Below, one piece after another: positions 8,128 through 26,386 of a DNA stretch of 64,000 nucleotides. How positions within the stretch are numbered: the stretch's first letter is position 1; the number at the start of each line of letters is the position of its first letter. The translations under genes and the position numbers were made by a program. The DNA comes from Arenicellales bacterium (GTDB lineage: Bacteria; Pseudomonadota; Gammaproteobacteria; Arenicellales; JAJDZL01), in contig OZ220493.1 of assembly GCA_965116205.1 (NCBI GenBank), positions 2,485,072-2,549,071 of the forward strand, written 5' to 3'. The notes under the pieces were generated by a model that saw only the letters and a program-made list of their open reading frames with translations, had not been told where the DNA came from and did no database searches.

Positions 8128-9258
8128 TCATTCGATTTGATCTGGTAATCTATAACTCGTACTTCTTCCTCTGCCGGAGTTTTGAATAAAGATGCCACGC
8201 TCTTTCAAGATCTGAATATCACGCAGTGCCGTGTCTTTTGAACATTTTACAAGTCTGGAGTATTTCGAAGTGTTCATATAACCGGTGAAATCATCCGCTA
8301 GCATTCGATTGATGATCAGACGTTGACGTTCATTGATGGAGTATCGATTGATTCTCTGCCAGAGTCGTGCTTTGAAGAGAACACCATCAAGAGTAATTTC
8401 TGCAGTGGATATCGCTCGGTTCAGACAGCTCAAATACCAGTTCAGCCAGTCAGTGATCTGCGGCGAAGCGCGTTGCTGTTTTTCCAGTTGACGGTAATAT
8501 TCCTGACGTTCGGATTCAATCTGTGTCGATAGACTGTAGAAACGGTCTGCCATACCGTCGGCATGCGCCAGCGCCATATCTCCGATGGCTCTGGCGATAC
8601 GGCCATTTCCATCTTCAAATGGATGAATACTCACAAACCACAGGTGAGCAATACCTGATTTAAGCACCGTATCTATGTCTTTGTCATCATTAAACCAATT
8701 TAGAAACAATTGCATTTCCTGTTCTAGCCGGTCTGCACTGGGCGCTTCGAAGTGAATATTTTCACGACCGATAGGGCCGGAGACAACTTGCATGGGTCCG
8801 GCATTCATAGTGCGCCATCCACCAACTGTAATTTGATGCATACCACTGCGTCCCGTCGGAAAGAGTGCCGCATGCCAGTTAAACAACCGTTCGGCGGTCA
8901 GAGACTCCGAAAAATTCTGTGTTATATCAAGCTCTATTTCAACAGCACCATCTACATCAGGACTAGCTGATAAATATTCTGTGCTTTGAATTCCTAATTT
9001 TTTCGAAATAGATGATCGAACTTCAGCAACATTGAGTTTTTCACCTTCAATAGCAAAAGATTTGACAATGTCGTTAGTAAGAGTGATAACACTGGCTTCG
9101 CGTCTGAACTCAAATCCAAGTCCCTCCATTCTTCCGAGCAGACGACCTTGGCGATGACGGACTTCAGCCAATTGAAAGGCAAGGACTTCGGCATCCCATG
9201 TAAAGGCTGGCCAATTTTCGTGTTGGTGTATCCACATGTTAATCACCGCAAAATACAA
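8128..9258 (-). CDS. Fic-family protein (AMPylase-type), class II with N-terminal inhibitory helix; likely true start at 9237
   Basis: Fic motif HPFEDGNGRIARA. The upstream SFAIEG matches the (S/T)xxxE(G/N) auto-inhibition motif. A C-terminal winged-helix-like region is present. Confidence 0.85.
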   Translation of the reverse strand: MYFAVINMWIHQHENWPAFTWDAEVLAFQLAEVRHRQGRLLGRMEGLGFEFRREASVITLTNDIVKSFAIEGEKLNVAEVRSSISKKLGIQSTEYLSASPDVDGAVEIELDITQNFSESLTAERLFNWHAALFPTGRSGMHQITVGGWRTMNAGPMQVVSGPIGRENIHFEAPSADRLEQEMQLFLNWFNDDKDIDTVLKSGIAHLWFVSIHPFEDGNGRIARAIGDMALAHADGMADRFYSLSTQIESERQEYYRQLEKQQRASPQITDWLNWYLSCLNRAISTAEITLDGVLFKARLWQRINRYSINERQRLIINRMLADDFTGYMNTSKYSRLVKCSKDTALRDIQILKERGIFIQNSGRGRSTSYRLPDQIE

Positions 9259-9920: not shown

Positions 9921-10544
9921 TTAGACTTTTCTATGTAACCACCAATTGGAATTTTCTTCTGCACCCGCACCTTTCCAAATAAACCCGTAATCTACCAGTT
10001 CTAAATCAGAAAAATACTCGTGCCAGAACATCCCAAAGTCACGTTTAAACAACTTATTTTTGTGGCCTCAGTAATCAATCGATTCGGGCCTGTCTGAGAA
10101 ATATTCGTTTGTTACGATGTATTTTGATGTGACACGATGCAATTCACGATACGTTTCAAGTAGATTACTTGGCTCAATATGGATCAACACGCCGCACGAT
10201 ATAGCTAGTTCAACAGATTGGTCTGCAAGTGGAATTTGGTTTCCCACTCCTTCAAATATATTTTTCTCTGGTAATATCCCACTTTTTCTGAGTGTATTTC
10301 TCGCTAAAGTGTTGGGTTCAACTGCGTAAAAAATAGCATCAAGTAGATGGCTGAGAGCATGTAGATTTATTCCCACGTTGGGCCCTATTTCTACACATGA
10401 CGTAGGGAGACAATGTTCCACAGCTCGTAGGATTCGAGACCATTTCCAAGTACTACCCAGGATTCGTGCTCTGGTTAGGTTGCAACGTTGACTATACTCG
10501 TTCCCAAATTCACCACGCCAAAAATCTTCTTGTTCGGTTTTCAT
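9921..10544 (-). pseudogene. Pseudaminic-acid-biosynthesis-associated methylase-like protein with an in-frame TGA
   Basis: The N-terminus TEQEDFWRGEFGNEY and SAM-MTase core resemble the Pse-locus methylase family (from memory). ORF 10068-10544 ends at TGA 10068-10070. The same frame then stays open for 48 more codons (GHKNKLFKRDF...DYGFIWKG...) to TAA 9921-9923, giving about 207 aa. Confidence 0.55.
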
Positions 10545-10752
10545 CTGAATACTATTGTTTTACTTGTCCATATTACATTGAAAAATAACGCATTTTTTAC
10601 TAACTAACCTATTGTGTTTTTTTCTTCATGATCTTAGTATGCATGTGTGGTATGAATGGAATGCTACTGTGGTCAGAGTAAAAATTTTACAGAATTATTG
10701 GTCCAGACCCAAGAAGAGTTCCACACGAGGGATAGTGATATTATAAAATAAA

Positions 10753-10876
10753 GGCTCTATTCTAAAATCGTGCGCGTGTGCATAAAATCAGATACTTAGA
10801 AATCAATAAATATCACTTTATTTCAAAGCTATACAGCTGTTGATGTTCTTTGCGCATACAATTTTAGAATAGAGCC
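10753..10876. repeat. 124-bp element bounded by perfect 16-bp inverted repeats (MITE-like or invertible/regulatory segment)
   Basis: GGCTCTATTCTAAAAT (10753-10768) and its exact reverse complement ATTTTAGAATAGAGCC (10861-10876). AAATAAA occurs just outside both ends (10746-10752 and 10878-10884). Confidence 0.6.
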
Positions 10877-11156
10877 CAAATAAAATCATCCTTGTAAGTG
10901 TAAAGGCGCCATTTCAGGAAAAAATACTGTAGAAAACCCACGCCGGAGAGAATATGGGCTTGAACTCATTTGTAAACTCAAAATCGGCGAAATGCGATAC
11001 ACTCGAAATGACAATATGAAGAATCTGTACTCTATATCAGTGGTCTTATTAACCACTAGCAAGAATCGCGAAGTACTCCTCATTGAAGTCTAAACTGAAG
11101 ATGTGTGAGGCAAAGAGAAACCGGCTCATTTCCAGACGTTAAGAAAAATTCAGAAG

Positions 11157-12483
11157 ATGAAAGTTACACATCTACAAAGTTCTACTCAAATCATCAACTT
11201 AGGCGACCTAAAAGTGCTGACTGATCCATGGTTGACTGATGGTGAGTACTACGGCAGTTGGTATCATTATCCGCCTTTTGGGGAAGAAAATATAGACAAT
11301 TTAAATTATGACTTTATTTACGTTTCCCACATTCATCCAGATCATTTGAGTGAGAAAACGTTTCGAAAACTTCCACTCAAGAAGCCCGTACTGATTCACA
11401 ATTATGACTCTAAGTTTGTAAAGCACAAACTGGAAATATTGGGTTACGAAGTTATTGAGTGTGATCATGGTAAGACTTTTGAATTCGAAAACGGTGGTTC
11501 AATAACTATCTATGCAGCTGACAATTGCAATCCAGAGCTTTGTGGGAAATTCTTGGGCTGCGCGAATCTAGAAGCTAAATTTGGAAGCACGCAGATTGAT
11601 ACGCTAGCTGTGTTTAAGCATCAAGGCGAAACCATCGTTAACGTTAACGATTGCCCTTTTGAGTTGGCGGAGAAAACTATTATAGCTAATATGCCTGAAA
11701 TTTTCTGGGGGGGGGGTGAACTTACTTCTAGTTGGCTATGCCGGTGCCGGACCGTACCCCCAGTGTTTTCACTTTGATAATATAGGTGATAAGCAGAAAG
11801 CAGCCGAGCAGAAAGAAAAACAATTTTTGCAGCAGGCAGCAAACTATATCAATCTGCTAAAACCGGATGCCTATGCTCCTTTTGCTGGCACCTATGTTCT
11901 GGGTTCTAAATTAGTAGGGTTGACCAAATTCAGAGGGGTGCCATTAATTTCAGATGCGCTGAACATGCTGAAAAATTATATATTGAATGATAGTAGCGGA
12001 GTTCTTCTCAACAAGCTGGATGTGTACGATGTGACCACTCAGCGACTATTCAAACATGAAGATGTGCCGAATCGCACCTATGACGAATTCTTACATGAGA
12101 TTGCAAACAAAAAACTTGAATATGAAGATGATGACTGGAATGATGCGGGTCTTTCGACACTCATGAATAAGTCTTACGAGCGATTCACCACTAAGGCCAG
12201 GGAGATTGGCTTTAAATCAACTACTTCATTGGTTGTGCAGAGTGATCGGGTTGCTTATCGGCTAAGTACGAGTGTCCCACCTGTTGAAGTTCCCGTCAAT
12301 AGTCGCTGTTCTGAGCCACTTCTGCGCATAACTGTTGATCATAATTTGCTTCATCGTTTACTCAGAGGGCCTAGATTTGCCCATTGGAATAATGCAGAAA
12401 TCGGTAGCCACCTACAGTACTTTCGCCAGCCAAATACCTATGAAAGAGGTCTGCATCATTGCATCTGTTTTTTGCATCAGTAA
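11157..12483 (+). pseudogene. MBL-fold metallo-hydrolase split by a poly-G frameshift (phase-variation candidate)
   Basis: ORF 11157-11777 carries HxHxDH (VSHIHPDH). ORF 11716-12483 continues in the +1-offset frame right after the G10 tract. Removing one G gives a single 441-aa ORF. Confidence 0.7.
11707..11716 (+). repeat. Homopolymeric G10 tract inside a coding sequence
   Basis: Counted directly: ttttct GGGGGGGGGG tgaac. Confidence 0.95.
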
Positions 12484-12686
12484 ATAAATTTACATGCAAA
12501 TGGTAGGAATATTAAAAGCAGCTTTGCATGACCGGCAGGGTAATAATTCGTTACTTTGAGACCGGCGAGCATCATATCTCTAGTAACTTCTAGTAAGACA
12601 AAACGATTTTTGATTGGATACGCGTTTTGGTTTATCTTTCGATTGTTTTTCTTGTATAAGAATTGAAGAAAGTTCGACGCAGGCGA

Positions 12687-13490
12687 TCATTTGATTTCTT
12701 TTTTCATCCGCTGTCTAAATGCCAATCTTTTCGGTATGCCTTGAGTAAGGAGTAGGTGAATCCTATATCTCAGTGTCTTTCTGTTCTTGTGTGGTAAAGT
12801 TTTTGCACTTAACCTTGGTCCGTAACTTTCCTCATTATAAGAGTGGTGTATTTCACTTGGTTCACCGTGATAAACCACTTGAGGTGAAATCGTGTAAGTT
12901 CTTAACCCATTTTTCCACCATGCATGTAAGTGCAAAACAAAATCAACCAAATCAACCATTATGGGATATTCTTTCAATAAAATTTTGATGGCTTGAAGAG
13001 TGATTACGTAGCCTACTGCTCCCATTGAATTACACTTGACTATACCAAGTGTGAACTTATCATTGATCTTATAAACAGGGAGGAAAGGATTTCTTGTTTT
13101 TCCGTTGTATAAGAAAACAATATCGAATTGATGCCCTTCGTTTTGAAATATACTTTCAATTGCAACTAATGCTGACTTCGTCTCTTTGGCAAGCTGGCAG
13201 TCATCTTCAAATACGGCAATCAGCTCTTCTTCATTTGCTAATGCGGTCCGCCAAACCTTCCGGTGACTTAACCAACAAGCTAAACCGCCATGTACAGGTG
13301 GTCGCTTGAATTTTCTTTCATTCGCAAGATACTGCGAGTCAACGTTGTCTTCAATGTCTTGGTCAGTCAAGTCGCGCCAATCTACACCTGATACGAACTC
13401 AAACTCAATCTCGGTGTTCTGAAACTCATTAATGCACGTTTCCTTTCGATCTGTCGCCCGTTCTAAGTGAATCACATAGCATTTCATCAA
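12687..13490 (-). CDS. Glycosyltransferase family 25 (LOS/LPS-type), copy A
   Basis: MKCYVIHLERATDR N-terminus and VFEDDC motif. It has a basic C-terminal tail (GIPKRLAFRQRMKKE) shared with ORF 35760-36608. Confidence 0.8.
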   Translation of the reverse strand: MMKCYVIHLERATDRKETCINEFQNTEIEFEFVSGVDWRDLTDQDIEDNVDSQYLANERKFKRPPVHGGLACWLSHRKVWRTALANEEELIAVFEDDCQLAKETKSALVAIESIFQNEGHQFDIVFLYNGKTRNPFLPVYKINDKFTLGIVKCNSMGAVGYVITLQAIKILLKEYPIMVDLVDFVLHLHAWWKNGLRTYTISPQVVYHGEPSEIHHSYNEESYGPRLSAKTLPHKNRKTLRYRIHLLLTQGIPKRLAFRQRMKKEIK

Positions 13491-13732
13491 ATTTGTTCCG
13501 GAAGTTGAACCACTCGCTTGATCACTTTAATAATGATTTTCCACTTTTCTGATGGTATTGAGCATTTTTCGCTGATTAGTCGAGGTGTTTTTAGCAGTTG
13601 AAAAATAGTAATACAGAAAATTACGCTATCGTTGTTGGCGGGCGTGAAACACTGAGCTAATTCAGGATAAGTCTCATTGAACGAGTATTCCAGTTTGACA
13701 ACTGGCTCGCAGAAATCACTCTGCCCGGTCAA
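13487..13732 (-). CDS. Hypothetical small protein (81 aa), doubtful
   Basis: The ORF bridges the gap between the ATPase and GT25 genes, overlapping both ends (stop overlaps the GT25 ATG). I recognise no motifs and the paralogous region has no counterpart. Confidence 0.2.
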   Translation of the reverse strand: MTGQSDFCEPVVKLEYSFNETYPELAQCFTPANNDSVIFCITIFQLLKTPRLISEKCSIPSEKWKIIIKVIKRVVQLPEQI

Positions 13733-15038
13733 TGAGATACTGTCGAAACGACGGAATTGGGATGATCAGATTTGTGTCCACACGATGCACCATCCCAGCA
13801 AAAACCATCTCCTCGATGAAATCTATTGGCTTCATGTTTTCAAGCATTACACTCTCTGAATCAGGGGCAGTTTCCCATGCTCTACCTCTGAGAAAAGATA
13901 CAAGTTTTAATCTAGAACAACCCTCGGGCCCGATCAACCGTGCGACATCTGCGAGTAATTGTTTGCAGTCGCTGATGGGTGAGTGATCCAATCGGTCTCT
14001 GTAATACTGCAGGCGACACCTATCGCCAAACGAACGTACTGTGGCCTCATCCACGCTTGCTAGATCAAGGTGGTTGATTTTGAGCTGATTGGCTAACCCC
14101 ACCATGTAGTGAAACAGATGTTGCGGCCAACCATTGGACCATTCGTTTATCTTGTCAGGTAAGTCGGAATTGTCTCTGTCTTTGATTTGGTAGCCATCTA
14201 ACATGGCACGCACCGATTCAGCCGCCTCACCAGTTTCCAATACCCCTAACGTCTGTACATGACTTTGTCCATTACTAGTAGCAAAGCGCGAGATTCTCTC
14301 CGCCGCTAATTTTGATTTGGAGTAGGCGAGTCCATAAAGAACCGCCAAAATCGGTAAACCATGCGTACCGTTGTGCAATTTGAATAGCAACGCCACATCC
14401 TCTGGCTTGAAAATCTGCACCTCATCAATCATCACCACAATAGGCCGTAGTTTTGGTGGTTTAATTGAACTTCCTTTTATGACCCTCTTGAAGATAGCTG
14501 CAGTTTTTTTACTGTAGAGCTTTGCTAGATCTTGCAAAACTAATTGAGATGACTGCTCACTATCGGTCACTTTTCCTCCACCCTTGATAAACATGTTAAA
14601 ACCGAGGTCTCTTTCAACAGTGCGAACAGAGTCAAGTATTTCCGCACCATAGTCTGGTACGATGCAGTTAGCAATTGTGCGCGTGACTTCAGACTCATTG
14701 CGCAGTTCAACCGGCTCAATTCTCACCACCACGGGTCCGTTAGACTTTGCCATCCATCTGTTCTGCAAATGACTAAGTAATGCCGATTTGCCGGCGCCGG
14801 GTGCCCCTTGAATTAGCCAAGTCTCTTGGTTAGATAACACCATTCCAGGCTGCAAACCTGCGTTAGGGGTTTCATACTTGATTCTGTTTTCGATTTCGGC
14901 AACTGTGGATTCGATGCCAGTGATGATATCTTTGCGTCCAACGAAGAATATGGCCTTATTCTTGTCGCTCCTTTGTCCGAATTTTTCCAAGGAAATTGGG
15001 GGTTCGATATACATTTGCGATGTCTCAGTTTTCAGCAT
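13716..15038 (-). CDS. STAND/AAA_16-like NTPase with C-terminal winged-helix-like region, copy A
   Basis: FFVGRKD...(FVGRxxE-type lead-in), Walker A QGAPGAGKSALL, Walker B VVMIDEVQ, and a SNGWPQHL helical-arm-like motif. It is paralogous to ORF 43766-45058. Confidence 0.65.
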   Translation of the reverse strand: MLKTETSQMYIEPPISLEKFGQRSDKNKAIFFVGRKDIITGIESTVAEIENRIKYETPNAGLQPGMVLSNQETWLIQGAPGAGKSALLSHLQNRWMAKSNGPVVVRIEPVELRNESEVTRTIANCIVPDYGAEILDSVRTVERDLGFNMFIKGGGKVTDSEQSSQLVLQDLAKLYSKKTAAIFKRVIKGSSIKPPKLRPIVVMIDEVQIFKPEDVALLFKLHNGTHGLPILAVLYGLAYSKSKLAAERISRFATSNGQSHVQTLGVLETGEAAESVRAMLDGYQIKDRDNSDLPDKINEWSNGWPQHLFHYMVGLANQLKINHLDLASVDEATVRSFGDRCRLQYYRDRLDHSPISDCKQLLADVARLIGPEGCSRLKLVSFLRGRAWETAPDSESVMLENMKPIDFIEEMVFAGMVHRVDTNLIIPIPSFRQYLIDRAE

Positions 15039-15323
15039 GCTCTACATCAATCATAACATGTTACATCAGACGGTGAATCATATTAAATTGGAACAGTTTG
15101 GGGTGTATTCAGGATGAATCTCAGCTAATGCATTATTATTAACATCTCTATGGTTATAATATTCACCTAACATCCAGCACCATAATGGATTGAAGCCACT
15201 GAGTTGAAAGTTAGTGCCCCTTTTTCAGCCGAATTATATGGTGGTACCACCGACCTTTGTTCCTGCGAATTTTTTAGGTGAGGTGTTTGCGCACACCTAA
15301 CCATAAGATATGATACACAGAGA

Positions 15324-16001
15324 ATGATAGTTACAATTCACCAGCCGGCATTTCTTCCTTGGCTAGGTTATTTTGACAAAATCCTTCACAGCGATACCTA
15401 TGTGTTCTTAGATTCAGTCCAATTTCGGAAGGGTGGCTATTCCAATCGAAATAGAATAAAGGGGGCTAACGGAGTGATATGGTTAACCATACCGGTCAAG
15501 CTAAAGGGTCACAAATCCAGCACCATCGGAGATATACCAATTGATTACTCACAGAAATGGAAAAGACAACATTTAAATTCTATCTTTTTCAACTATCGAA
15601 AGGCGAAGTTCTTCGATCTCCTGTTCCCAAAGTTAGAAACTCTCTATGCGGAAAAGCATGAGCTATTGTCAGAACTTGTCTATGCTCAATTGTTATTTTG
15701 GATGAGTGAGCTAGGCATTGAAACCGAAGTCGTTAAATCTAGTGATATTCCCACTCAGTGCAAGAAATCTGATTTGGTTTTGGAGTTGTGTATAAAACTT
15801 GGTGCACATCAATATCTTGCCAGTCCAAATAGTACAATTTACTTAGAGGAGACTGGTTTCCATGATCATTCGATTCGTATTGACTACCGAGGCTACGAAC
15901 ATCCAGTGTATCCACAACTTTTTGGTGAGTTTGTTCCAAATCTATCAATCGTTGATTATTGGATGAACGCGCACAAATCAATTTTCGTTCGAGAGGAATA
16001 A
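15324..16001 (+). CDS. WbqC-family protein, copy 1
   Basis: The N-terminus IHQPAFLPWLGYFDKI is typical of the WbqC-like family. 225 aa. Confidence 0.75.
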   Translation: MIVTIHQPAFLPWLGYFDKILHSDTYVFLDSVQFRKGGYSNRNRIKGANGVIWLTIPVKLKGHKSSTIGDIPIDYSQKWKRQHLNSIFFNYRKAKFFDLLFPKLETLYAEKHELLSELVYAQLLFWMSELGIETEVVKSSDIPTQCKKSDLVLELCIKLGAHQYLASPNSTIYLEETGFHDHSIRIDYRGYEHPVYPQLFGEFVPNLSIVDYWMNAHKSIFVREE

Positions 16002-16004
16002 TTG

Positions 16005-16676
16005 ATGCCCGAATTGAGCCAAAGTGACATCTGGAATAAAGTTTATAGCCACCACAAGCGACATGCAATTTGGCCTTGGACGGATCTCGTTAAACTCGTC
16101 ATGCGTCATGCATCTCCACCTTACCGGAAAGGTTTCAAAGTACTCGAATTAGGCTGTGGTGCCGGCGCTAATATTCCATTTTTTGCATCGCTGGGGGTGA
16201 GTTATTTTTCCGTAGAATCAAGTGAGGTCATTGTCTCCCAGTTGCATGAAACTTATCCACAATTCTGTGATTCTATAGTCGCCGGAGATTTCACAAGAGA
16301 GTTGCCTGATGAGGAGTTTGATTTGATTGTAGATCGAGCAGCGCTCATTCATAATAAATCTGCAACCATTGAACTGTGTATGCAGCATTGCCATGAGAAA
16401 CTGAAATCAGGTGGTAAATTTATCGGTGTTGATTGGTATTCAACCCGATGCAGTTCCTTTGCACACACTGAGGCGGAAGATGAATGGACGCGAGTCAATT
16501 TTGCAAGTGGTCCTTTTGTTCCCGTATACCGAGTTCATTTCACCAACAAGACACGTTTACTGGAGATATTATCAAATTTTGAATTAGAGGTATTGGAACA
16601 TAAAACGATTGAATCGGAGTCGGACAAAGAAAACGCGACCCTTGCAAGTTGGAACTTCGTAGCAACAAAATCATGA
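16005..16676 (+). CDS. Class I SAM-dependent methyltransferase, copy 1
   Basis: VLELGCGAGAN motif I. It starts 3 nt after the wbqC-1 stop. Its 5' ~260 nt are about 94% identical to copy 2. Confidence 0.8.
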   Translation: MPELSQSDIWNKVYSHHKRHAIWPWTDLVKLVMRHASPPYRKGFKVLELGCGAGANIPFFASLGVSYFSVESSEVIVSQLHETYPQFCDSIVAGDFTRELPDEEFDLIVDRAALIHNKSATIELCMQHCHEKLKSGGKFIGVDWYSTRCSSFAHTEAEDEWTRVNFASGPFVPVYRVHFTNKTRLLEILSNFELEVLEHKTIESESDKENATLASWNFVATKS

Positions 16677-16784
16677 TGGGCAATGCGGTGAGATGGAAAT
16701 GTTGGCCAGAGGCGGTGGAGCGGAGCCTCCACTAAACCACTTCGATTCACTTATTTTTACGCAACATGAAAGCGTTACCATAAA

Positions 16785-17462
16785 ATGGTTGTCTCAGTCC
16801 ATCAGCCGGCATTTCTACCATGGCTAGGTTACTTCAACAAAATTATTCGTAGCGATAAATTTGTCTTTCTTGATACGGTTCAATTTGAGAAGGGGAGTTT
16901 TGTTAACCGAAATCGGATCAAAGGTAACAACGGAGTGATATGGTTGACGGTGCCTATTAAAATAAAAGGACACATGACCAATACCATCAAGAATATTTTG
17001 ATTGATAATACTCAGAAGTGGCAAAGAAGGCATCTGAATTCAATTTTTTTCAACTATCGAAAAGCGAAGTATTTTGATCGTTTGTATCCGCAGTTAGAAC
17101 AGCTGTATCAGGAACGGTATGATTTTCTGTCTGACCTCACCTATTCACAGTTGAAATTTTGGCTGGATGAACTGAACATCAATACCAAAGTCATTAAGTC
17201 GGAAGATTTGTCCACTCAACGTAGGAAATCTGATCTTATCTTGGAATTATGTCTACGGCTGGGTGCCGATCAATATCTAGCAGGTTCGCTCAGTAAGAAT
17301 TATCTTGATGAATCAGCGTTTCGTCAGCAGTCAATTGATATCGAATACCAAAACTACCAAGGTCCGAAATATCCACAACTTTTTAGTGGATTCATTCCTA
17401 ATCTATCCATTGTTGATTATTGGATGAACACTCACAATACCATTTTCATTCGCGAGGAATAG
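16785..17462 (+). CDS. WbqC-family protein, copy 2
   Basis: VHQPAFLPWLGYFNKI N-terminus. It has the same length as copy 1 (225 aa) and is about 70% identical. Confidence 0.75.
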   Translation: MVVSVHQPAFLPWLGYFNKIIRSDKFVFLDTVQFEKGSFVNRNRIKGNNGVIWLTVPIKIKGHMTNTIKNILIDNTQKWQRRHLNSIFFNYRKAKYFDRLYPQLEQLYQERYDFLSDLTYSQLKFWLDELNINTKVIKSEDLSTQRRKSDLILELCLRLGADQYLAGSLSKNYLDESAFRQQSIDIEYQNYQGPKYPQLFSGFIPNLSIVDYWMNTHNTIFIREE

Positions 17463-17464
17463 TT

Positions 17465-18145
17465 ATGCCCGAATTGAGCCAAAGTGACATCTGGAATAAA
17501 ATTTATACCCACCACAAGCGCCATGCAATTTGGCCTTGGACGGATCTCGTTCAACTAGTTATGCGTTATGCATCTCCACCCTACCAGAAGGGTTTCAAAG
17601 TACTTGAATTAGGCTGTGGTGCCGGCGCTAATATTCCCTTTTTTGCATCGCTAGAGGGGGGGGGGGTGAGTTATTTTTCCGTAGAATCAAGTGAGGTCAT
17701 TGTCTCCCAGTTGCATGAAACTTATCCGCAGTTTCGCGATTCAATAGAGGTTGGTGACTTCACAACAGAACTGCCTAATGAACAATTTGATCTGATTGTC
17801 GATCGAGGGGCAATGATTTGTAACAAATCCAAAGCTATTGCACGATGTATTCAGCGTTGTTATGCACAACTCAATTCTGGTGGAAAATTTATTGGTGTCG
17901 ACTGGTACTCTACCCAATGCAGTTCATTTGCGCAAGCTCAGGTGGAGGATGAATGGACCCGAGTGAATTTTGTAAATGGCCCCTTTGTACCTGTGCATAG
18001 AATACATTTTAGCGATAAAGAGCATCTGCTGGATTTGTTTTCCAATTTTGAAATCGAAGCACTTGAGCATAAAACCATTAACAATGAATATAACGAAAAT
18101 CACCCTACCTTGGCCAGCTGGAATTTTGTGGCGGTAAAAGTATGA
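17465..18145 (+). CDS. Class I SAM-dependent methyltransferase, copy 2 (contains an in-frame G11 tract)
   Basis: MPELSQSDIWNK start is homologous to copy 1, so the 17420 start in the ORF track is probably an upstream extension. VLELGCGAGAN motif. It has an extra EGG relative to copy 1, encoded by the poly-G tract. Confidence 0.8.
   Translation: MPELSQSDIWNKIYTHHKRHAIWPWTDLVQLVMRYASPPYQKGFKVLELGCGAGANIPFFASLEGGGVSYFSVESSEVIVSQLHETYPQFRDSIEVGDFTTELPNEQFDLIVDRGAMICNKSKAIARCIQRCYAQLNSGGKFIGVDWYSTQCSSFAQAQVEDEWTRVNFVNGPFVPVHRIHFSDKEHLLDLFSNFEIEALEHKTINNEYNENHPTLASWNFVAVKV
17656..17666 (+). repeat. Homopolymeric G11 tract inside a coding sequence (in frame)
   Basis: Counted directly: ctaga GGGGGGGGGGG tgag. 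The homologous site in copy 1 (16193-16197) is G5. Confidence 0.95.
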
Positions 18146-18820
18146 AAAATGTTCTTGTCGTTGCGGCGCATCCCGATGATGAAATTCTAGGTTGTGGTGG
18201 GGCCATGGCCCGCCATGTTGAGCACGGTGATGATGTTCATGTTCTATTTGTTGCGGATGGCGTGAGTTCAAGAGGCGGTGATTTCAGCATTGATGAACAT
18301 CGCCAAATGAGTATTCGCGCCAATGAAGAAGTTGGTACCCATTCACCGCGATTTTTGGATTTCCCAGATAATCAGCTGGATAGCGTTCCTTTGCTTCAAA
18401 TTGTTCAGGGGATAGAGCCCCATATTGAAGATATTTCTCCAAGAATCATCTATACACATTTCTCCGGTGATTTAAATATCGATCACTCCATTGTGAATCG
18501 CGCGGTGATGACAGCCTGCCGACCACAACCGAATTTTCCCGTTCAAGAAATTTACGCATTTGAAGTTCCGTCGAGCACGGGCTGGCTTCCAAATGGGGGG
18601 GGGGGTGAACTCCTTTGAGCCTAATGTCTTTGTTAACATTACAAAAACGTTTTCCAAAAAGTTGGCTGCACTTGAGTTTTATGGAAATGAAATGCGACCA
18701 TTTCCACACAGCAGGAGTTTTGAAGGAGTTGAACATTTAGCCTGTTTTCGCGGTACATCTGTAGGATTGGAGATGGCTGAAGGATTTGTTGCGGAACGCA
18801 TTCTTCAGGTTGACCGTTGA
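18142..18820 (+). pseudogene. PIG-L/LmbE-family deacetylase split by a poly-G frameshift (phase-variation candidate)
   Basis: VVAAHPDDEILGCGG N-terminal motif in ORF 18142-18618. ORF 18560-18820 (FEPNVFVNIT...PHSRS...) continues in the +1-offset frame after the G11 tract. Removing one G gives a 225-aa ORF. Confidence 0.75.
18595..18605 (+). repeat. Homopolymeric G11 tract inside a coding sequence
   Basis: Counted directly: ccaaat GGGGGGGGGGG tgaac. Confidence 0.95.
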
Positions 18821-18835
18821 GAACTGAAAACCTGA

Positions 18836-19438
18836 ATGGAACAACTCAGCAAATGTCATGGAGATGGTCAAAAGATACTGTTTCTAGGCTTTGATCGAAA
18901 TAAAACGAGTTTGATTGATTATTTAATTTCAAAAGGACATGAAGTTTGGCATACCGAAAAAACCATCTCTGCCGTGACTGATTTCCAATTTGTCATCAGT
19001 TTTGGCTATATGCACATGATCACACGTGAAGTGCTTCGAGATCACAAGTGCCTGTTCATCAACTTACATATTTCCTATCTGCCGTTTAACCGAGGATCTA
19101 ATCCAAATTTTTGGGCTTTCTACGATCAAACGCCCAGTGGGGTAACTATTCATAAGATTGATGCTGGAACTGACACCGGTGACATTATTTGTCAAAAGCA
19201 GGTAAAGTTTGATCAAGGGGAAACAACTTTTGTTCAGACCTACAACAGACTGATTATTGAGACCGAAGAATTATTCAAAAATTGGTGGAACTTGATTGCT
19301 ACCCATCAATTTACCGCGACTCCTCAAGATGTAAAAGCGGGTACCTATCATAGAGATTCAGATCTGCCGAAAGAGATATCCACCTGGGACGTAGAGATTA
19401 CCTCAGAAATTAATCGCCTCAGAGAGTTGTTGAGTTAA
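18836..19438 (+). CDS. Sugar N-formyltransferase-like protein (formyl-transferase N-terminal domain only)
   Basis: NLHISYLPFNRGSNPNFWA matches the HxSxLPxxRG formyltransferase motif. 200 aa. Confidence 0.7.
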   Translation: MEQLSKCHGDGQKILFLGFDRNKTSLIDYLISKGHEVWHTEKTISAVTDFQFVISFGYMHMITREVLRDHKCLFINLHISYLPFNRGSNPNFWAFYDQTPSGVTIHKIDAGTDTGDIICQKQVKFDQGETTFVQTYNRLIIETEELFKNWWNLIATHQFTATPQDVKAGTYHRDSDLPKEISTWDVEITSEINRLRELLS

Positions 19439-19522
19439 GAATGAAATGCTAACGCCATACTTGAAATTGAAAATTCGGAAGATTTATCCCAACCTATTCT
19501 CACCTGACATCTACAAATCTCT

Positions 19523-20515
19523 ATGTTACAGAAATCGTCAATCCTGTTAACCGGTGGCACCGGTTCTTTTGGTTCTCGTTTTGTTCCATTAGCACTGGAA
19601 AAATACGATCCTTCCCGTCTGGTCATTTATTCTCGCGATGAAATGAAACAATGGGAGATGTCGAAGGCATTCCAGAATGATCCGCGGGTTAGATTTTTTC
19701 TGGGCGATGTGCGTGATAAAGAACGCCTCTACAGAGCGATGGATGGAGTTGACTATGTAGTTCATGCTGCTGCACTCAAAATCATACCCATCGCTGAGTA
19801 CAATCCGTTTGAATGCATCAAGACCAATATCAATGGCGCGATGAATGTCATTGATGCCTGTCTGGACGTTGGAGTCAAAAGATGCATCGCTCTTTCTACT
19901 GACAAGGCGTCCAGTCCGGTGAATCTCTATGGGGCGACCAAGTTGGCGGCGGAAAAATTGTTTGTCGCCGCCAATGCTTACTCTGGAAACTCCCGTTGTC
20001 GCTTTGCTGTGGTTCGGTACGGAAACGTGATGGGATCGAGGGGGTCGGTGATTCCTTATTTTCTATCATTGGATAAGCAAGGCGAATTACCGATTACGGA
20101 TGTTCGTATGACTCGCTTTATGATCAAACTCGAGCAGGCAGTAGACTTGGTTTTTCATGCTTTTTCTGAGATGGTAGGGGGCGAGATTTACATTCGTAAG
20201 GTGCCATCCATGAATATTATGGACATCGCTAAAGCCTGCGTTCCAAATTCGAAACACAAAATTATTGGTATTCGCCCCGGTGAAAAGTTAAGCGAACAGC
20301 TCGTCGGTGAAGATGAATCAGCCTTTACCTATGAATACGATGAGTATTTCAAGATCATGCCGGCAATCCAAACCTTCTCAGAGCAACCCAAACCCGATGG
20401 TCAATTGGTTGCCAGCGGGTTCAAATACGCGTCAGATTCAAACGATTCATGGATGGAAATTCAAGAACTATCGGAATGGATCGACAACAACCGCGACATC
20501 ATTGGTTACTTCTAA
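19523..20515 (+). CDS. pseB: UDP-N-acetylglucosamine 4,6-dehydratase (inverting), PseB/FlaA1-type
   Basis: LLTGGTGSFG Rossmann motif and YGATKLAAEK (YxxxK). 330 aa, immediately followed by a PseC-type aminotransferase. Confidence 0.85.
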   Translation: MLQKSSILLTGGTGSFGSRFVPLALEKYDPSRLVIYSRDEMKQWEMSKAFQNDPRVRFFLGDVRDKERLYRAMDGVDYVVHAAALKIIPIAEYNPFECIKTNINGAMNVIDACLDVGVKRCIALSTDKASSPVNLYGATKLAAEKLFVAANAYSGNSRCRFAVVRYGNVMGSRGSVIPYFLSLDKQGELPITDVRMTRFMIKLEQAVDLVFHAFSEMVGGEIYIRKVPSMNIMDIAKACVPNSKHKIIGIRPGEKLSEQLVGEDESAFTYEYDEYFKIMPAIQTFSEQPKPDGQLVASGFKYASDSNDSWMEIQELSEWIDNNRDIIGYF

Positions 20516-21670
20516 TTGATTCAATATGCCCGCCAAAACATCACGAAAGGTGATGTTGAAGCAGTCGTTGCGGCACTGAGTTCGAATTTTTTGACACAGG
20601 GTCCGCTGGTGCCTGAATTTGAACAGGCGGTCGCACAACAGGTAGCGGCGAAATATGCCGTTGCAACTAACTCGGCAACCTCTGCGCTACACACAGCCTG
20701 TTTAGCTCTAGGACTGTGTTCTGATGATTTACTTTGGACCGTTCCCAATTCGTTTGTGGCATCGGCAAATTGTGGATTACTTTGTGGGGCTGAAGTAGAT
20801 TTTGTTGATATTGATTCAACAAGTTACTGTATGGACGTAGATGCATTAGCCAGCAAATTAAAAACAGCTGAACTGGCCGGACGACTACCCAAGGTCTTAG
20901 TCGTTGTACATTACGCCGGGCATAGTGCAGAGATGCTGTCGATTAGAAAACTCGCCAATCAATATGGAATCCATGTCATTGAAGATGCTGCCCACGCTAT
21001 AGGTGGTAGTTATCGGGGAAAGTTGATTGGCTCCTGCGAATTTAGCGATGTTACTGTTTTCAGTTTTCATCCGGTCAAAATCATGACGACAGCCGAAGGC
21101 GGAATGGCTGTTACCAACGATGCGCAAATTGCTTCACGTATGGCGAGACTCCGAACTCATGGAGTGACCCGAAATCAGGCTGAAATGCAGAACAAAAATC
21201 CTCATCCATGGGAATTTGAGCAACTCGAACTTGGCTTGAATTATCGAATGACTGAGTTGCAGGCGGCGTTGGGAATATCGCAATTGGGGCGGCTTGATGC
21301 TTTTGTATCTCGTCGTCGTCAACTGGCTCATCAATATGACGCACAACTTCGTAAATTACCTTTAATTCTACCTAATCTACAATCATCGAATGAGTGTGCT
21401 TGGCATCTGTATCCAGTGTTGATCGACTCAAGGCAGACGACATTGACACGGGAACAGGTCTATTATTCACTGCTGGACAGAGGAATCAAATCAAACGTAC
21501 ATTTCATTCCCATCCATACGCAACCATACTTTAAGGAAATGGGCTTCGCAGTCGGCGACTTTCCAGTGTCCGAGTGGTTTTATGCCCATGAACTCAGTTT
21601 ACCGATGTATTATGATTTGACTGATTCAGAGCAACAGAGCGTGATAGATGCGATGTTTGCAGTGTTTTGA
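20516..21670 (+). CDS. pseC: UDP-4-amino-4,6-dideoxy-N-acetyl-beta-L-altrosamine transaminase-like (DegT/PseC family); TTG start
   Basis: The N-terminus IQYARQNITKGDVEAVVAALSSNFLTQGPLVPEFE is PseC-like. SFHPVKIMTTAEGG carries the PLP-lysine context. Confidence 0.8.
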   Translation: MIQYARQNITKGDVEAVVAALSSNFLTQGPLVPEFEQAVAQQVAAKYAVATNSATSALHTACLALGLCSDDLLWTVPNSFVASANCGLLCGAEVDFVDIDSTSYCMDVDALASKLKTAELAGRLPKVLVVVHYAGHSAEMLSIRKLANQYGIHVIEDAAHAIGGSYRGKLIGSCEFSDVTVFSFHPVKIMTTAEGGMAVTNDAQIASRMARLRTHGVTRNQAEMQNKNPHPWEFEQLELGLNYRMTELQAALGISQLGRLDAFVSRRRQLAHQYDAQLRKLPLILPNLQSSNECAWHLYPVLIDSRQTTLTREQVYYSLLDRGIKSNVHFIPIHTQPYFKEMGFAVGDFPVSEWFYAHELSLPMYYDLTDSEQQSVIDAMFAVF

Positions 21671-21740
21671 ATCTCTTGGTTTATTTCCATCCGTTCAGGA
21701 AATGGATTTCGCAATGATAACTGACCCAATGTCGATGAAA

Positions 21741-23237
21741 CTATGATGAGAAGGTCGTACTGATTCTGTTTTGAATCAAATCAACAATGGTATTGGCGAC
21801 TCGTTTGGCATTTTTTTCTAGATCGTGTTTGCCACCGGACCTCCGTCTTTTCAGTGGTTGAATACGGCCGCCATGGGCACGGGCAAAAAGTTGACGGACT
21901 GCTTGTTGCAGATGCTCTGGATCAATCTTGAAATCACAGATACGGTCATAAGTGAGGTCATCTTGATACTTGAATATTCCCGGTAAATTCAGATACCAAG
22001 GCGATCCAAAAATCAGTGCTTTTTTGCCATTGCAGATGGCTTCCCAAGCTGCAGTTCCGGTAATCGCCGCAACAAACTGAGCGTGTTCAATCAATTGGTG
22101 GGTATTGGCATAAGAGGGTACCCAACGAATGTTGCTCAGGTGACTGAGTCGATGAAAAAATTGCGCACCACGCATACACCCACCTTGCTTTGGATTTTCC
22201 TTGAGATAAATCAGACAGTCATCAGGCAGCAATTGACACAGTTGCTCCAATGCCAGAATCTGGTCGGCATAAATGCCTCCAAGTGTGGAGGTTGTCATTT
22301 CAGGTTGGAGCTGTAGCGGAAAATAGACGAATTTACAGTGGAAATCAATCTCAGTCGTTTCGAATTGTAGCAGTGTTTCAAAGTAATCCAGATGACGGAT
22401 ATCAAAATACCTGGAGAATGGATACCGCCATTTAGGCAACAAAGATGCAATACGACTCATTCGCCGCAGAAAATTGGCCAAGTGAAAAGGTTGTAATAGG
22501 GTTGCTGGCCGTACCGTAAGTAAATGTACCAATAGCATCAGTATCCCCAGTCCATTGAGTTTTCCCAATTTGCCTTGCTGCTGCTCCGTACCTTTCATGT
22601 AATCCCATTCTAGTGTTTCGGTCAATTCGGCGAACCGATGATCATCTTGCAGAGTGGGAGTTGGTGACCATTTTCCATAATCATTGATATCACGAAGGGA
22701 AAAAAAGTACTCGGGGTATATCGTTGGTGAGAGCATTAAGGTATTGATTTGTCGAGACTTCGCGATCTGGTAGGCCAAGGTGTCTACGAACAAGTGCGGA
22801 AGCTCGAAAAACAGTATCAAATCAATTCTTTGCTGTGTCAAATAATGAGCAATAAGATCGGTGATGATGCGATAGTAGTGCTTCTCATCCATAATGGAAT
22901 TCAGTTCATGATGCCGCCAGACAAAACTAGCAGATTTCCGTTCTAAGTGGTCTAGAGCCATGAGTGTCGCTGCATTTGATTGTGCGCTCAACAGCAGTTC
23001 TAATCCATGACCAGAAAACTGATCATTTTGCAAGATTTCTGCGATAGCTCCTGATCTTTTTTCCATTCTTACCAAGTTGGTTAAACCGATATCCTGTTGG
23101 TTGCCGACCACGATCAATCTTGATGTAGAGGGTAACAGACAGTTCAGCTGACGGACTATGGCTTGCATGAGAATGTCAGCCGCGCCAAAGACTAAGATAG
23201 TTTGTGGAGTCAAGTTGAGTTGGGTAGTTTGCGTCAT
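21741..23237 (-). CDS. Capsule-polysaccharide-biosynthesis-family protein (KpsS/KpsC/LpsZ-like), paralogue 1
   Basis: 498 aa. YFPLQLQPEMTTS motif and C-terminal ...VAAITGTAAWEAICNGKKALIFG. Family assignment is from memory and unverified. Confidence 0.55.
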   Translation of the reverse strand: MTQTTQLNLTPQTILVFGAADILMQAIVRQLNCLLPSTSRLIVVGNQQDIGLTNLVRMEKRSGAIAEILQNDQFSGHGLELLLSAQSNAATLMALDHLERKSASFVWRHHELNSIMDEKHYYRIITDLIAHYLTQQRIDLILFFELPHLFVDTLAYQIAKSRQINTLMLSPTIYPEYFFSLRDINDYGKWSPTPTLQDDHRFAELTETLEWDYMKGTEQQQGKLGKLNGLGILMLLVHLLTVRPATLLQPFHLANFLRRMSRIASLLPKWRYPFSRYFDIRHLDYFETLLQFETTEIDFHCKFVYFPLQLQPEMTTSTLGGIYADQILALEQLCQLLPDDCLIYLKENPKQGGCMRGAQFFHRLSHLSNIRWVPSYANTHQLIEHAQFVAAITGTAAWEAICNGKKALIFGSPWYLNLPGIFKYQDDLTYDRICDFKIDPEHLQQAVRQLFARAHGGRIQPLKRRRSGGKHDLEKNAKRVANTIVDLIQNRISTTFSS

Positions 23238-23281
23238 CTACTTGGAGATGAGGAATGCCTGGTTACGAGAATTTTGCCCAT

Positions 23282-24766
23282 TTAGAGACTCGTCTGCGAG
23301 GAGGCCATTCGCTCTGATGAGCGAAAGCTGGTATCCGCGCGGTTGAAAATGAGCTTGATTATTTGGTTGGCAACGATTTCTGCGTTTTTTTCAATGCCAA
23401 TGGCATGAGTCTGCGCTGATGATTGCATGTCATCTGGGTGAAGATTACCATCATGTGATTTCGAGAATAGAATATTAATTTGATCATTAACTTCTAGATT
23501 AGTGAAATGAGATTCAACAACTTCTTCATAAGAAAGTTCATTTTTAAAGATGTGGACTCCAGGAAATTTCCAGTACCAAGGTTTGCCAAAAACGAGTACT
23601 TTTTTATCCAAATTGAGCGCATTCCACCCCAGTTGACTGTTCACAGTGGCAAATATTTCACAATTCTCCAGGAGTTGTTGAGTGTTCATGCAACGAGGTA
23701 TATGGACTACGTTTGAGATTCGTCTGAGCCGATGGAAAAACATCGGAGTCAGGTAGTCTGAGTGTTCGACATCGCTATCCTTAACCATGATCTTGTAATG
23801 GCTTGGAATGAATCTCGACAGTTGTTCAATGGCGAGTAATTGGTCCGAAAATTGATTGAGCAATATTTCCGAGTAGAGTTCTCTTAACGGCTGTAAAGGA
23901 AAATAAACGTACTTGTGCTGTAGCTGAGATGTGATATCACAATCTTGAGTGATAAATTCAAAATAAGCATGTTTTTTTTGAAAGAAGAACTTGGCAAATG
24001 GATCACGCCAGTCGTTTCTGTTGGGTGGTGCGTCATGTAAGTGTCTTGCCCGGCTCAGGACAAAGACCGGGTCAAACAACTTGATTGATCGAATCTCCAA
24101 GAGAAACAACACGACTTTGATGGCATTTGCGAGCGTTAATCGGCTGGTTGATTTCTGCTGAGTCATATCCGCCGGTATGGTGTTGCCTTTCAAATGAGAA
24201 ATTTCTTGTTTTGTTACCTCGACAAAGGTTTCATAGTCACCGAAGTCATGCAATGACCGCAATGAAAAAAAACGTTTTGGAAAAATAGCGGGAGTCAGTA
24301 TCAGGGTTTCTATTCGTAGTGCTTTCGCCACTTGGTATAACAGAAGGTCGACTAATGCAGTGGGCCAATTGAAGAATACGATCAAGTCAATTTTCTGTTC
24401 CACCAAGTGATTCTGCAGTAGATTCCATAGCATCTGATTAGCATGTAGATTGTCGTGGAACAGGAGAATATTCCCATCTTTGCCGCGCTCATATTCTTGA
24501 ACCAAGGCGTTTGCCAATTGACTGCCCGGGTCGGTGTTGAAAGTGAGCGGGTAATTGCAGTGGGAAGGTTCCACAACACTTGAATAATGAGAATAGTTGT
24601 GATGCGGATAAGTGGAATCATAGATTTTTTCAATCGCCAAGTCACTTTGATCAAATACCAGCACTTGGGCAGAATGATGCAGTGATTCCTTTTTCAACTG
24701 CCGCAATATTTCCGCATTGTCGTCAGATTTCCCGACGATGAGAATGCGCGGAGCTGTTTTTTTCAT
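23282..24766 (-). CDS. Capsule-polysaccharide-biosynthesis-family protein, paralogue 2 (most divergent); start probably at 24766
   Basis: YFPLQPLRELYSE motif. Alignment with paralogues 1 and 3 starts at MKKTAPRILIVGK. The ORF track extends it to 24874. Confidence 0.55.
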   Translation of the reverse strand: MKKTAPRILIVGKSDDNAEILRQLKKESLHHSAQVLVFDQSDLAIEKIYDSTYPHHNYSHYSSVVEPSHCNYPLTFNTDPGSQLANALVQEYERGKDGNILLFHDNLHANQMLWNLLQNHLVEQKIDLIVFFNWPTALVDLLLYQVAKALRIETLILTPAIFPKRFFSLRSLHDFGDYETFVEVTKQEISHLKGNTIPADMTQQKSTSRLTLANAIKVVLFLLEIRSIKLFDPVFVLSRARHLHDAPPNRNDWRDPFAKFFFQKKHAYFEFITQDCDITSQLQHKYVYFPLQPLRELYSEILLNQFSDQLLAIEQLSRFIPSHYKIMVKDSDVEHSDYLTPMFFHRLRRISNVVHIPRCMNTQQLLENCEIFATVNSQLGWNALNLDKKVLVFGKPWYWKFPGVHIFKNELSYEEVVESHFTNLEVNDQINILFSKSHDGNLHPDDMQSSAQTHAIGIEKNAEIVANQIIKLIFNRADTSFRSSERMASSQTSL

Positions 24767-24874
24767 ATTGAGAAAATACCAATCTTTTCCAAGAGTTGAA
24801 TCAGCAGATAAAACAACGAGTGACTTGACTAATCGAGCTATCCAATTGGCAAGGTTAACGAGAAAATAGCTCAA

Positions 24875-26386
24875 TTACCCTTCATTGTTCAAAAATGTCG
24901 GCTCAACTTTATGTTCAATCAGGTCCAGTATGGTTCGCGCGACGGTTTTTGCATTGGCGACTAGTGCAATTGCATGGTCTTGATCTTTCTGTTTTGCAAT
25001 ATACAACGCGCCTTCGTGAGTGCGAGACAACAATAGTCCAGCCTTTTGTTCTAACTCGGCATGGTTGATCTCAGAAGAAATAATTTCGTCATAAGTCATG
25101 CCATAACGAAATGGAATGGCACCGTCTAAATCTCGATACCAAGGATTGCCAAAGAAAAGAACCGCCTTGCCTTTGCAAATCGCTTCCCAACCGACTGTTC
25201 CGGTAACGGTGGCTACAAATTGTGAGTGGTCGAGCAATTCCTGCGTGTTGGCATAGGAAGGGACCAATCGCACCTGACGAATGCGAAACAGTCGGTTGAA
25301 GAACTGTGCACCCCGCATCGCGCCGGTTTGTTTGGGATTTTCCTTTACGAAAATTAAGCAGTCAGCGGGAATTATCTCCGCGAGTTTCTCAATGGCCAGC
25401 AACTGATCATAATAGTCTCCACCGATTGTCGATGTAGATAATTCCGGTTGTAGATGTAAAGGAAAATAAACGAACTTACAGTGCCAATCAATTTCAGACT
25501 TTTCAAAATCCAGTAGTGTTTCGAAATATGCGAGATGACGGATATGGAAAAATTTCGCAAATGGGTAACGCCACTTGGGAAGGGTGCTTGCTATGTGCCG
25601 CATTCGATTGATGCAATTAACCAAATATCGAGGATTAAATAGTTTGACCGGCGTAGAAGTTAACAGGTGACAGAACAGCGCGATGATGCCGCGTCCATCC
25701 AAAGAACCCAGTTGGCCCTGATACTGCTTAACACTAGACATATATCCCCACTCAATGGTTAGATTTTTGTCAATGGTGAGTGGCGCCACTGGTGGCTGAT
25801 CCGAATGTTCTCGTAGGCGGCCAAATTGGTCAAGGTCTCGAAGTGAAAAAAAGCGATTGATAAAAGGTGAAAAAGTGAGGATGATGGTTTGAATGCGCTT
25901 GGCTTTGGCAATGTGATAGGCGATGGTATCGTAGTAAAGGTGAGGAATATCGAAGAACAATACGACATTGATATGGTTACGTACCATATGGTCAGCCATG
26001 ATATCCACTACCAAATGGTAGTATTGCACCGCATCGTAGAACGTGTTGAGGTTGTTGTGTGACCACGCAAAGTTTTCCGTTCTTCGCTGTAGATGATCCA
26101 GACCCATCAGCACGGCTTCACTCAGCGCTTTGCTGTTCACCCAGTGTAACTCTCCCCCGGAGTACATTGAATCTTTTATGTTCAGACTTTTTTTTGTTTT
26201 TCGACGTTTAATCCGAGTTAACCCACTCATCACAATGTCAGCACCTCGTTTTCCAGCAACGTCAAATTGCGCTGATTTGGGCAGTTGATTTCTTAACTGC
26301 GAAACGATGGTTTGTAGCGTTTCATTGCTAGTACTGAATGCCAGAATGCACAATGCTCCGTCAGTCAACTCTGTTGTCGATTGCAT
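24875..26386 (-). CDS. Capsule-polysaccharide-biosynthesis-family protein, paralogue 3
   Basis: 503 aa with YFPLHLQPELSTS motif. It is collinear with paralogue 1 along its whole length. Confidence 0.55.
   Translation of the reverse strand: MQSTTELTDGALCILAFSTSNETLQTIVSQLRNQLPKSAQFDVAGKRGADIVMSGLTRIKRRKTKKSLNIKDSMYSGGELHWVNSKALSEAVLMGLDHLQRRTENFAWSHNNLNTFYDAVQYYHLVVDIMADHMVRNHINVVLFFDIPHLYYDTIAYHIAKAKRIQTIILTFSPFINRFFSLRDLDQFGRLREHSDQPPVAPLTIDKNLTIEWGYMSSVKQYQGQLGSLDGRGIIALFCHLLTSTPVKLFNPRYLVNCINRMRHIASTLPKWRYPFAKFFHIRHLAYFETLLDFEKSEIDWHCKFVYFPLHLQPELSTSTIGGDYYDQLLAIEKLAEIIPADCLIFVKENPKQTGAMRGAQFFNRLFRIRQVRLVPSYANTQELLDHSQFVATVTGTVGWEAICKGKAVLFFGNPWYRDLDGAIPFRYGMTYDEIISSEINHAELEQKAGLLLSRTHEGALYIAKQKDQDHAIALVANAKTVARTILDLIEHKVEPTFLNNEG

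Follow-up and report, generated by a model that had tools for sequence, protein, structure and literature searches.

Poly-G tracts in a putative pseudaminic acid-type glycan island of an uncultured marine gammaproteobacterium point to switchable sugar-tailoring genes

In a few animal pathogens, phase variation of surface sugars by means of DNA repeats is textbook knowledge and is usually ascribed to immune evasion; its established mechanism in Campylobacter, Neisseria and Haemophilus is slipped-strand mispairing. What, then, are long runs of G doing inside the glycan genes of a marine bacterium: do they switch genes on and off, or do they mark misread or dying genes? The question is raised by a 64,000-nucleotide stretch of the genome of an Arenicellales bacterium (GenBank assembly GCA_965116205.1, contig OZ220493.1, positions 2,485,072 to 2,549,071; hereafter the window, numbered from its first letter), which harbors a surface-glycan island with one poly-G tract each in genes for a metallo-β-lactamase (MBL)-fold enzyme, an S-adenosylmethionine (SAM) methyltransferase and a PIG-L deacetylase. 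We consider it likely that the three runs are functional hypermutable switches, that is, simple-sequence-repeat contingency tracts. An initial annotation of this DNA had already proposed that the pattern fits slipped-strand phase variation, a proposal now supported by the non-random occurrence of the tracts, by the conservation of the PIG-L tract between genomes and by interrupted codons at the same site in outgroups.

A regular-expression scan of the 64-kb window returned four G runs of six or more, namely a G6 at 2722-2727 and the three tracts listed below, no C run of six or more, and no A or T run of nine or more. Each tract reads as G on the coding (+) strand, the three together span 6.9 kb, and no other G or C run in the 64 kb is longer than six. 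With the tracts masked, the window's own frequency of G after GGG predicts by chance about 0.009 G runs and 0.0004 C runs of ten or more in the 64 kb, which has a GC content of 46%. Because so few are expected, the three G runs of ten or more in 6.9 kb are not a product of chance, and their clustering is non-random. The run scan and domain matches thereby bear out the initial annotation, which had described three coding-strand G10-G11 tracts in these gene families and no further G or C run above about six. The three genes and their tracts are as follows.

11157-12483, + strand: MBL-fold gene of about 440 amino acids with a Lactamase_B_3 match, split by a G10 and ON at G9 or G12
11707-11716, + strand: poly-G tract 1, G10, out of frame by +1
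16785-18145, + strand: WbqC-like gene 2 (16785-17462) and SAM methyltransferase MT2 (17465-18145), the latter bearing tract 2
17656-17666, + strand: poly-G tract 2, G11, in frame
18142-18820, + strand: PIG-L/LmbE family deacetylase gene, split by a G11 and ON at G10
18595-18605, + strand: poly-G tract 3, G11, out of frame by +1

In the assembled sequence, the MBL-fold and PIG-L genes are each one G too long and the methyltransferase gene is in frame, a two-to-one division that had been described from the outset and that held up upon removal of one G and alignment with homologs. The frame giving a full-length product (ON) is reached at G9 or G12 in the MBL-fold gene (G10 in the assembly), at G10 in PIG-L (G11 in the assembly) and at G11 in the methyltransferase (G11 in the assembly). 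At the sequence level, a change of one unit toggles each of the three genes between a full-length and a truncated (OFF) product, and all three repeats lie within open reading frames (ORFs) at lengths, G10, G11 and G11, above the empirically mutable one; the poly-G/C cut-off applied to Campylobacter phasomes is 7 or more, and the tracts in the window are longer (PMC6321876).

A TGA directly follows all three tracts (GnTGA[A/G][C/T]T), so that translation in one of the two wrong frames ends at once. The GTG of the G-GTG-A motif stands behind a G-rich, Shine-Dalgarno-like run and could serve as an internal restart; the ORF list starts one at GTG 11716. The GnTGA context is not kept in three related loci, L001, L004 and L005, and is partly ancestral, as MT1, the tract-free paralog of MT2, has GGGGGTGAGT.

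Joining 18142-18618 to the +1 frame minus one G yields a PIG-L protein of 225 amino acids, which is full length relative to homologs of 220-230 amino acids. Tract lengths in relatives, a check suggested along with the initial annotation, showed that two other genomes have a PIG-L tract at the orthologous codons, an out-of-frame G11 in one and an in-frame G9 in the other. Compared between species, the same site thus carries tracts of differing length and state: G11 (OFF) in the window, G11 (OFF) in L004 and G9 (ON, in frame) in L005. The L004 gene encodes a truncated, 165-amino-acid ortholog (82% identity) on a 3.8-Mb contig of an Arenicellales metagenome-assembled genome (MAG), and is one G over its ON length of G10; the L005 gene (69% identity) belongs to a genome of 40% GC, and the three genomes together span 40-49% GC.

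In the window, L004 and L005 alike, the ON frame reads the tract as Gly-Gly-Gly, with GGG for every residue. This codon is the least used for glycine in all three genomes (10-13% of glycine codons), and the chance that all nine glycine codons are GGG is about 5e-9, assuming independence. Four-fold-type third positions are 26-40% identical between the three genes, whose synonymous sites are near saturation. Since these sites are near-saturated and GGG is rare, the run is not a leftover of recent common ancestry, and selection, rather than shared descent, seems to have kept it. Outgroups at 62-65% identity read GGG GGT GGG (L006) and GGT GGT (L007) at the same site; the PIG-L protein therefore does not need an unbroken run of G. 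A search of JGI metagenomes with a degenerate nucleotide pattern covering the PIG-L site and G9 returned nothing.

In the Arenicellales MAG, the PIG-L gene with the tract belongs to a second WbqC-methyltransferase-PIG-L-formyltransferase module (L004 8679-11317), which lies beside sHdr/DsrE/TusA sulfur-oxidation genes on the same 3.8-Mb contig as L001, the main pseBC locus of that MAG. In L001 (9314-10800 and 18227-18307), just short PIG-L remnants are retained. From the second copy and these remnants, it follows that the tailoring module moves about the genome.

The MBL-fold gene was restored in the same manner: 11157-11777 joined to 11716-12483 minus one G gives a protein of 441 amino acids that aligns end to end with homologs of about 439 amino acids and covers 100% of its length against hundreds of homologs. 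The family is found beside NeuB/CMP-transferase genes. Tract 1 corresponds to a two-residue insertion in a variable loop, ahead of a conserved VNLLLVGY strand, at a site where the closest homolog reads AGG GTA AAC. This homolog (74% identity, L002/L003) is tract-free, comes from an unrelated organism of 59% GC and was used as an outgroup only. The NeuB of that organism is called as two pieces (216 and 81 amino acids) on JGI contig L002 (7948-8840) and as one 297-amino-acid gene on Logan contig L003 (2766-3659); no long G or C run is present in L002.

The methyltransferase tract has arisen within a tandem duplication. A WbqC-like gene and a methyltransferase gene form a pair that is duplicated at 15324-18145, with MT1 and MT2 being 77% identical and the poly-G present only in the second copy; L001, L004, L005, L006 and L007 each contain a single such pair at the locus examined. 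MT2 is a class I SAM methyltransferase whose reading frame runs straight through the G11. Relative to six homologs including MT1, tract 2 is a 9-nucleotide insertion (EGG) in the loop after SAM-binding motif I, and MT1 reads CTG GGG GTG AGT (G5) at this position. Gain or loss of one G is predicted to truncate MT2, with the stop at G12 being the TGA right behind the tract. The arrangement is a duplicated pair in which one copy gained a tract. A scan of a genome collection with MT2 recovered only one related species. In L001, the methyltransferase is tract-free and WbqC contains an in-frame C9 (+6 nucleotides, Pro-Pro).

As judged from these alignments, the MBL and MT2 tracts are lineage-specific and grew out of short G runs located in variable loops. 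Because MT2 has gained nine nucleotides, the MBL-fold protein two residues and the L001 WbqC gene a C9, we infer that tracts arise repeatedly, as short G/C runs expand in different genes of the same tailoring module, and that at least one has then been maintained.

The genes around the three tracts define the glycan island. Its remaining features are the following.

9921-10544, − strand: pseudaminic acid (Pse)-biosynthesis-associated methylase that scores 155 bits with TIGR03587 (cut-off 112) when its stop is read as X, interrupted by TGA and an apparent pseudogene
12687-13490, − strand: GT25 family glycosyltransferase, an ortholog of which flanks the same module in L005
13716-15038, − strand: P-loop/AAA ATPase, role unassigned, a homolog of which adjoins the L001 locus
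15324-16676, + strand: WbqC-like gene 1 (15324-16001) and SAM methyltransferase MT1 (16002-16676), tract-free
18836-19438, + strand: sugar N-formyltransferase-like gene
19523-21670, + strand: pseB (19523-20515) and pseC (20516-21670), NCBIfam equivalogs
21741-26386, − strand: three paralogous genes for proteins of about 500 amino acids with a weak Capsule_synth (KpsS/KpsC-like) domain, a triplet kept in L001 and L005

Both pseB (TIGR03589, 502 bits against a cut-off of 408) and pseC (TIGR03588, 513 bits against 424) are intact, and these scores above the equivalog cut-offs uphold the proposal that the tracts sit in tailoring genes of a Pse-type glycan cluster. PseH, PseG, PseI (NeuB) and PseF are not in the window, and Pfam scans of the window gave no NeuB match; CTP_transf_3 and NeuB genes adjoin the same module in the related loci L005 and L007, and the 3.3-Mb genome may hold the missing pse genes at another place. 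The gene content suggests that the island probably builds a modified pseudaminic acid-type sugar for lipopolysaccharide (LPS) or capsule, the destination to which the transferase candidates, GT25 and the Capsule_synth-like proteins, point as well. We rejected flagellin glycosylation: the Pfam scans of the window detected no Maf, flagellar or flagellin genes of the kind that accompany a Campylobacter-type flagellin-glycosylation island, and LPS or capsule is therefore the likelier destination.

The triplet of genes for proteins of about 500 amino acids stands beside pseBC in three genomes (window 21741-26386, L001 13304-17973 and L005 13733-18590). Neither of the two genes checked (21741-23237 and 24875-26386) has an NCBIfam match, and the triplet is a candidate set of CMP-ulosonate (CMP-nonulosonate) glycosyltransferases of an undescribed family. 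A promoter and terminator scan of 9-27 kb gave nothing above shuffled sequence.

Several observations weigh against the interpretation of the runs as switches. The first group bears on the main rival explanation, that the tracts exist but that their lengths are wrong by one through a long-read consensus artefact and that all three genes are in frame in the organism, which we judge unlikely. The names of related contigs (ctgN_NNx_l, with coverage tags) follow what we take to be the style of a long-read metagenome assembler, and G10-11 lengths in a long-read consensus may be off by one, as may the ON/OFF calls derived from them. The MBL-fold and PIG-L genes of the window and the PIG-L gene of L004 each exceed an ON length by exactly one G, which for the two PIG-L genes could reflect either a systematic calling bias or two populations in the OFF state; conservation downstream of the shifts is perfect. 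Two further observations count against switching: no ON variant of the window's MBL-fold or PIG-L gene was among the best matches in either database search, and one more G9 (L001 19769-19777) sits in a high-GC ISXO2-like transposase gene beside the L001 glycan locus.

Against miscalled lengths, a uniform +1 bias would push MT2, now in frame at G11, into a wrong frame, and a mix of ON and OFF states persists under any uniform bias. The shorter A/T homopolymers of 7-8 are all correct: 18 of the 21 such runs in the window lie inside intact ORFs, which indicates that the assembly is accurate at ordinary homopolymers, and some 50 kb of further ORFs, most of them housekeeping genes, are uninterrupted. 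Moreover, even with all three genes in frame, unbroken runs of G9-G12 would be hypermutable, and their conservation in rare GGG codons would still need a contingency explanation. A poly-G read artefact of two-color chemistry was also considered and rejected, as the tracts are inside conserved ORFs and at orthologous codons in independent assemblies, and the glycines are present in homologs.

Ordinary gene decay, in which the island is degenerating and the MBL-fold and PIG-L genes are young pseudogenes whose first inactivating indels fell at homopolymers, is less probable still. Some decay of the island is indicated by the neighboring Pse methylase gene, which is interrupted by an in-frame stop (TGA, 10070-10068, in the context gat tac TGA ggc cac), and by pseF, pseG, pseH and pseI, none of which was found by tblastn in the 64 kb with the CTP_transf_3, 368-amino-acid and acetyltransferase genes of L005; the PIG-L remnants of L001 and the equally broken L004 ortholog fit the same scenario. 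The TGA is the sole non-tract lesion of the island, the rest of the methylase gene being intact, and it marks an apparent nonsense pseudogene or possibly read-through or a sequencing issue. Decay leaves unexplained, however, how insertions into coding loops came to create long G runs and why three species with saturated synonymous divergence have all retained nine G, and PseB and PseC remain intact.

The sequence past the two shifts further argues against decay. Downstream of the PIG-L tract, the window and L004 share 77% amino acid identity, compared with 82% upstream, and differ by 22 synonymous codon changes against 16 replacements. The C-terminal 255 residues of the MBL-fold protein, past the frameshift, keep every family-invariant residue. 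Neither gene contains secondary stops or indels. Because this downstream sequence is conserved and free of lesions, the out-of-frame state of both genes is recent, transient or an assembly miscall rather than long-standing pseudogenization, and their OFF states, if real, appear to be recent or transient.

Constitutive expression of the out-of-frame genes, with slippage of RNA polymerase on the G run or frameshifting of the ribosome there acting as a fixed recoding device, is very improbable: long homopolymers can provoke transcriptional slippage and the GnTGA context gives an immediate stop in one wrong frame at all three window tracts, but one of these tracts is already in frame, L005 PIG-L is in frame at G9 and thus shows no fixed recoding requirement, the context is not kept in L004, L005 and L001, and slippage is best documented on A/T runs.

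Returning to contingency switching, we also asked how such tracts are distributed beyond the island. Across the window and the related loci, six tracts fall within about 42 kb of glycan modules, against one, the G9 in the insertion sequence (IS) of L001, within about 83 kb of other DNA. That ISXO2-like transposase gene needs two frame changes (at the G9 and near 19860) which points either to a disrupted copy of the IS or to faulty polishing of a repeat. In 80 distantly related metagenome loci with a homolog of the 500-amino-acid glycosyltransferase (737 kb), only two G or C runs of nine or more were found, both in frame in glycan genes. One is a G9 (L042 1484-1492) in the Capsule_synth-like transferase, that is, in the homolog of the 500-amino-acid glycosyltransferase itself. 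The other is a G13 (L065 8081-8093) in a 433-amino-acid DUF4910/DUF2172/HTH_47 protein that resembles, by size and description, the "aminopeptidase-like polysaccharide biosynthesis" family of Campylobacter Cj1295 (PMC3068675). Poly-G tracts in nonulosonate-type glycan islands may thus be sporadically widespread outside pathogens.

If the tracts do switch, slipped-strand mispairing at replication would add or remove G at high frequency, and with each change in length a tailoring gene would alternate between a full-length product (ON) and a truncated one (OFF). Subject to this would be the genes for the MBL-fold enzyme, the second copy of the duplicated methyltransferase and the PIG-L deacetylase, and independent switching of the three could produce up to 8 glycan variants per clonal population. 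PIG-L might strip the N-acetyl group from an intermediate of the Pse pathway, with the adjacent formyltransferase or the methyltransferases re-decorating the amine; the PIG-L switch would thereby toggle the identity of the N-acyl group. In a non-pathogen, the likely selective agents would be phages or grazers that recognize the glycan.

The host, an uncultured marine gammaproteobacterium, has a GyrA that shares 73-77% identity with proteins on Mb-scale contigs, one of which is a contig of the MAG labeled Arenicellales, and 56-66% identity with named matches (Arenicellales and Acidiferrobacterales). These matches and the housekeeping genes are in line with the gammaproteobacterial background recognized at first annotation: aceE, aceF, lpd, uvrA, ssb, gyrA, pheA, hisC, tyrA, aroA and cmk are intact elsewhere in the window, and ftsK, lolA, rarA and serS follow past the island, after the triplet of ~500-amino-acid genes. 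Accessory or defence-like genes are scattered between the housekeeping operons, among them two paralogous AAA-ATPase_like plus PDDEXK_9 genes (5174-6736, − strand, and 36964-38547, + strand), a DUF4172-Fic gene (8128-9258, − strand), an AAA_21/AbiEii-like ATPase gene (38702-40555, − strand) and a second GT25 glycosyltransferase gene wedged beside aceF (35760-36608, − strand).

The predicted system shares features with several known ones. Phase variation of lipooligosaccharide (LOS) glycosyltransferases in Neisseria and Haemophilus relies on poly-G in lgtA/C/G and on tetranucleotide repeats in lic genes, and the island resembles it in the combinatorial ON/OFF arrangement of several glycan genes through intragenic repeats. 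There, however, the switched genes are glycosyltransferases of obligate human commensals and pathogens, whereas here the glycosyltransferase candidates (GT25 and the three ~500-amino-acid genes) are tract-free. The closest parallels are with the poly-G genes of the flagellin-glycosylation, capsule and LOS loci of Campylobacter jejuni (for example Cj1295), which likewise contain intragenic coding-strand poly-G of 8-11 (PMC3068675, PMC6321876). As in C. jejuni, the tracts lie in tailoring enzymes, including methyltransferases of a pseudaminic acid-type pathway, are clustered in one island in a mix of ON and OFF states, and are kept between strains or species while their flanks diverge. Unlike C. 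jejuni, a host-adapted epsilonproteobacterium, the bearer is an uncultured marine gammaproteobacterium of 46% GC, Maf and flagellin genes are absent from the vicinity, and the families with tracts are an MBL-fold enzyme, PIG-L and a WbqC-associated methyltransferase.

Another aquatic gammaproteobacterium with contingency loci in surface-polysaccharide biosynthesis genes is Vibrio cholerae O1, in which subpopulations arising through the phase-variable O-antigen genes wbeL and manA are reported to escape a glycan-specific phage (PMC3441752). There, wbeL and manA are required for any O antigen to be made and so switch its presence or absence, as proven experimentally, whereas the genes in the window look like decorating enzymes.

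In the literature searched, which was not exhaustive, we found neither phase variation described for Arenicellales nor poly-G contingency loci described for marine MAGs. The mechanism class, simple-sequence-repeat contingency loci, is already known; what is notable is the host lineage and the conservation of one tract across species. Our data tentatively suggest, at somewhat less than even confidence, a broader picture in which the PIG-L poly-G is an old, selectively maintained mutability device common to several uncultured, non-pathogenic marine gammaproteobacteria (Arenicellales and relatives), in which new tracts keep arising in the WbqC-methyltransferase-PIG-L module, and in which contingency loci serve as conserved bet-hedging against phages or grazers in free-living or invertebrate-associated ocean bacteria as well as in host-adapted pathogens. 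If the switching is real, a sulfur-cycling marine lineage would possess a multi-tract "phasome", and phage or grazer pressure would be a sufficient driver of it. A frameshift in a glycan gene of an environmental MAG would then no longer be sufficient reason to write it off as a pseudogene or an assembly error.

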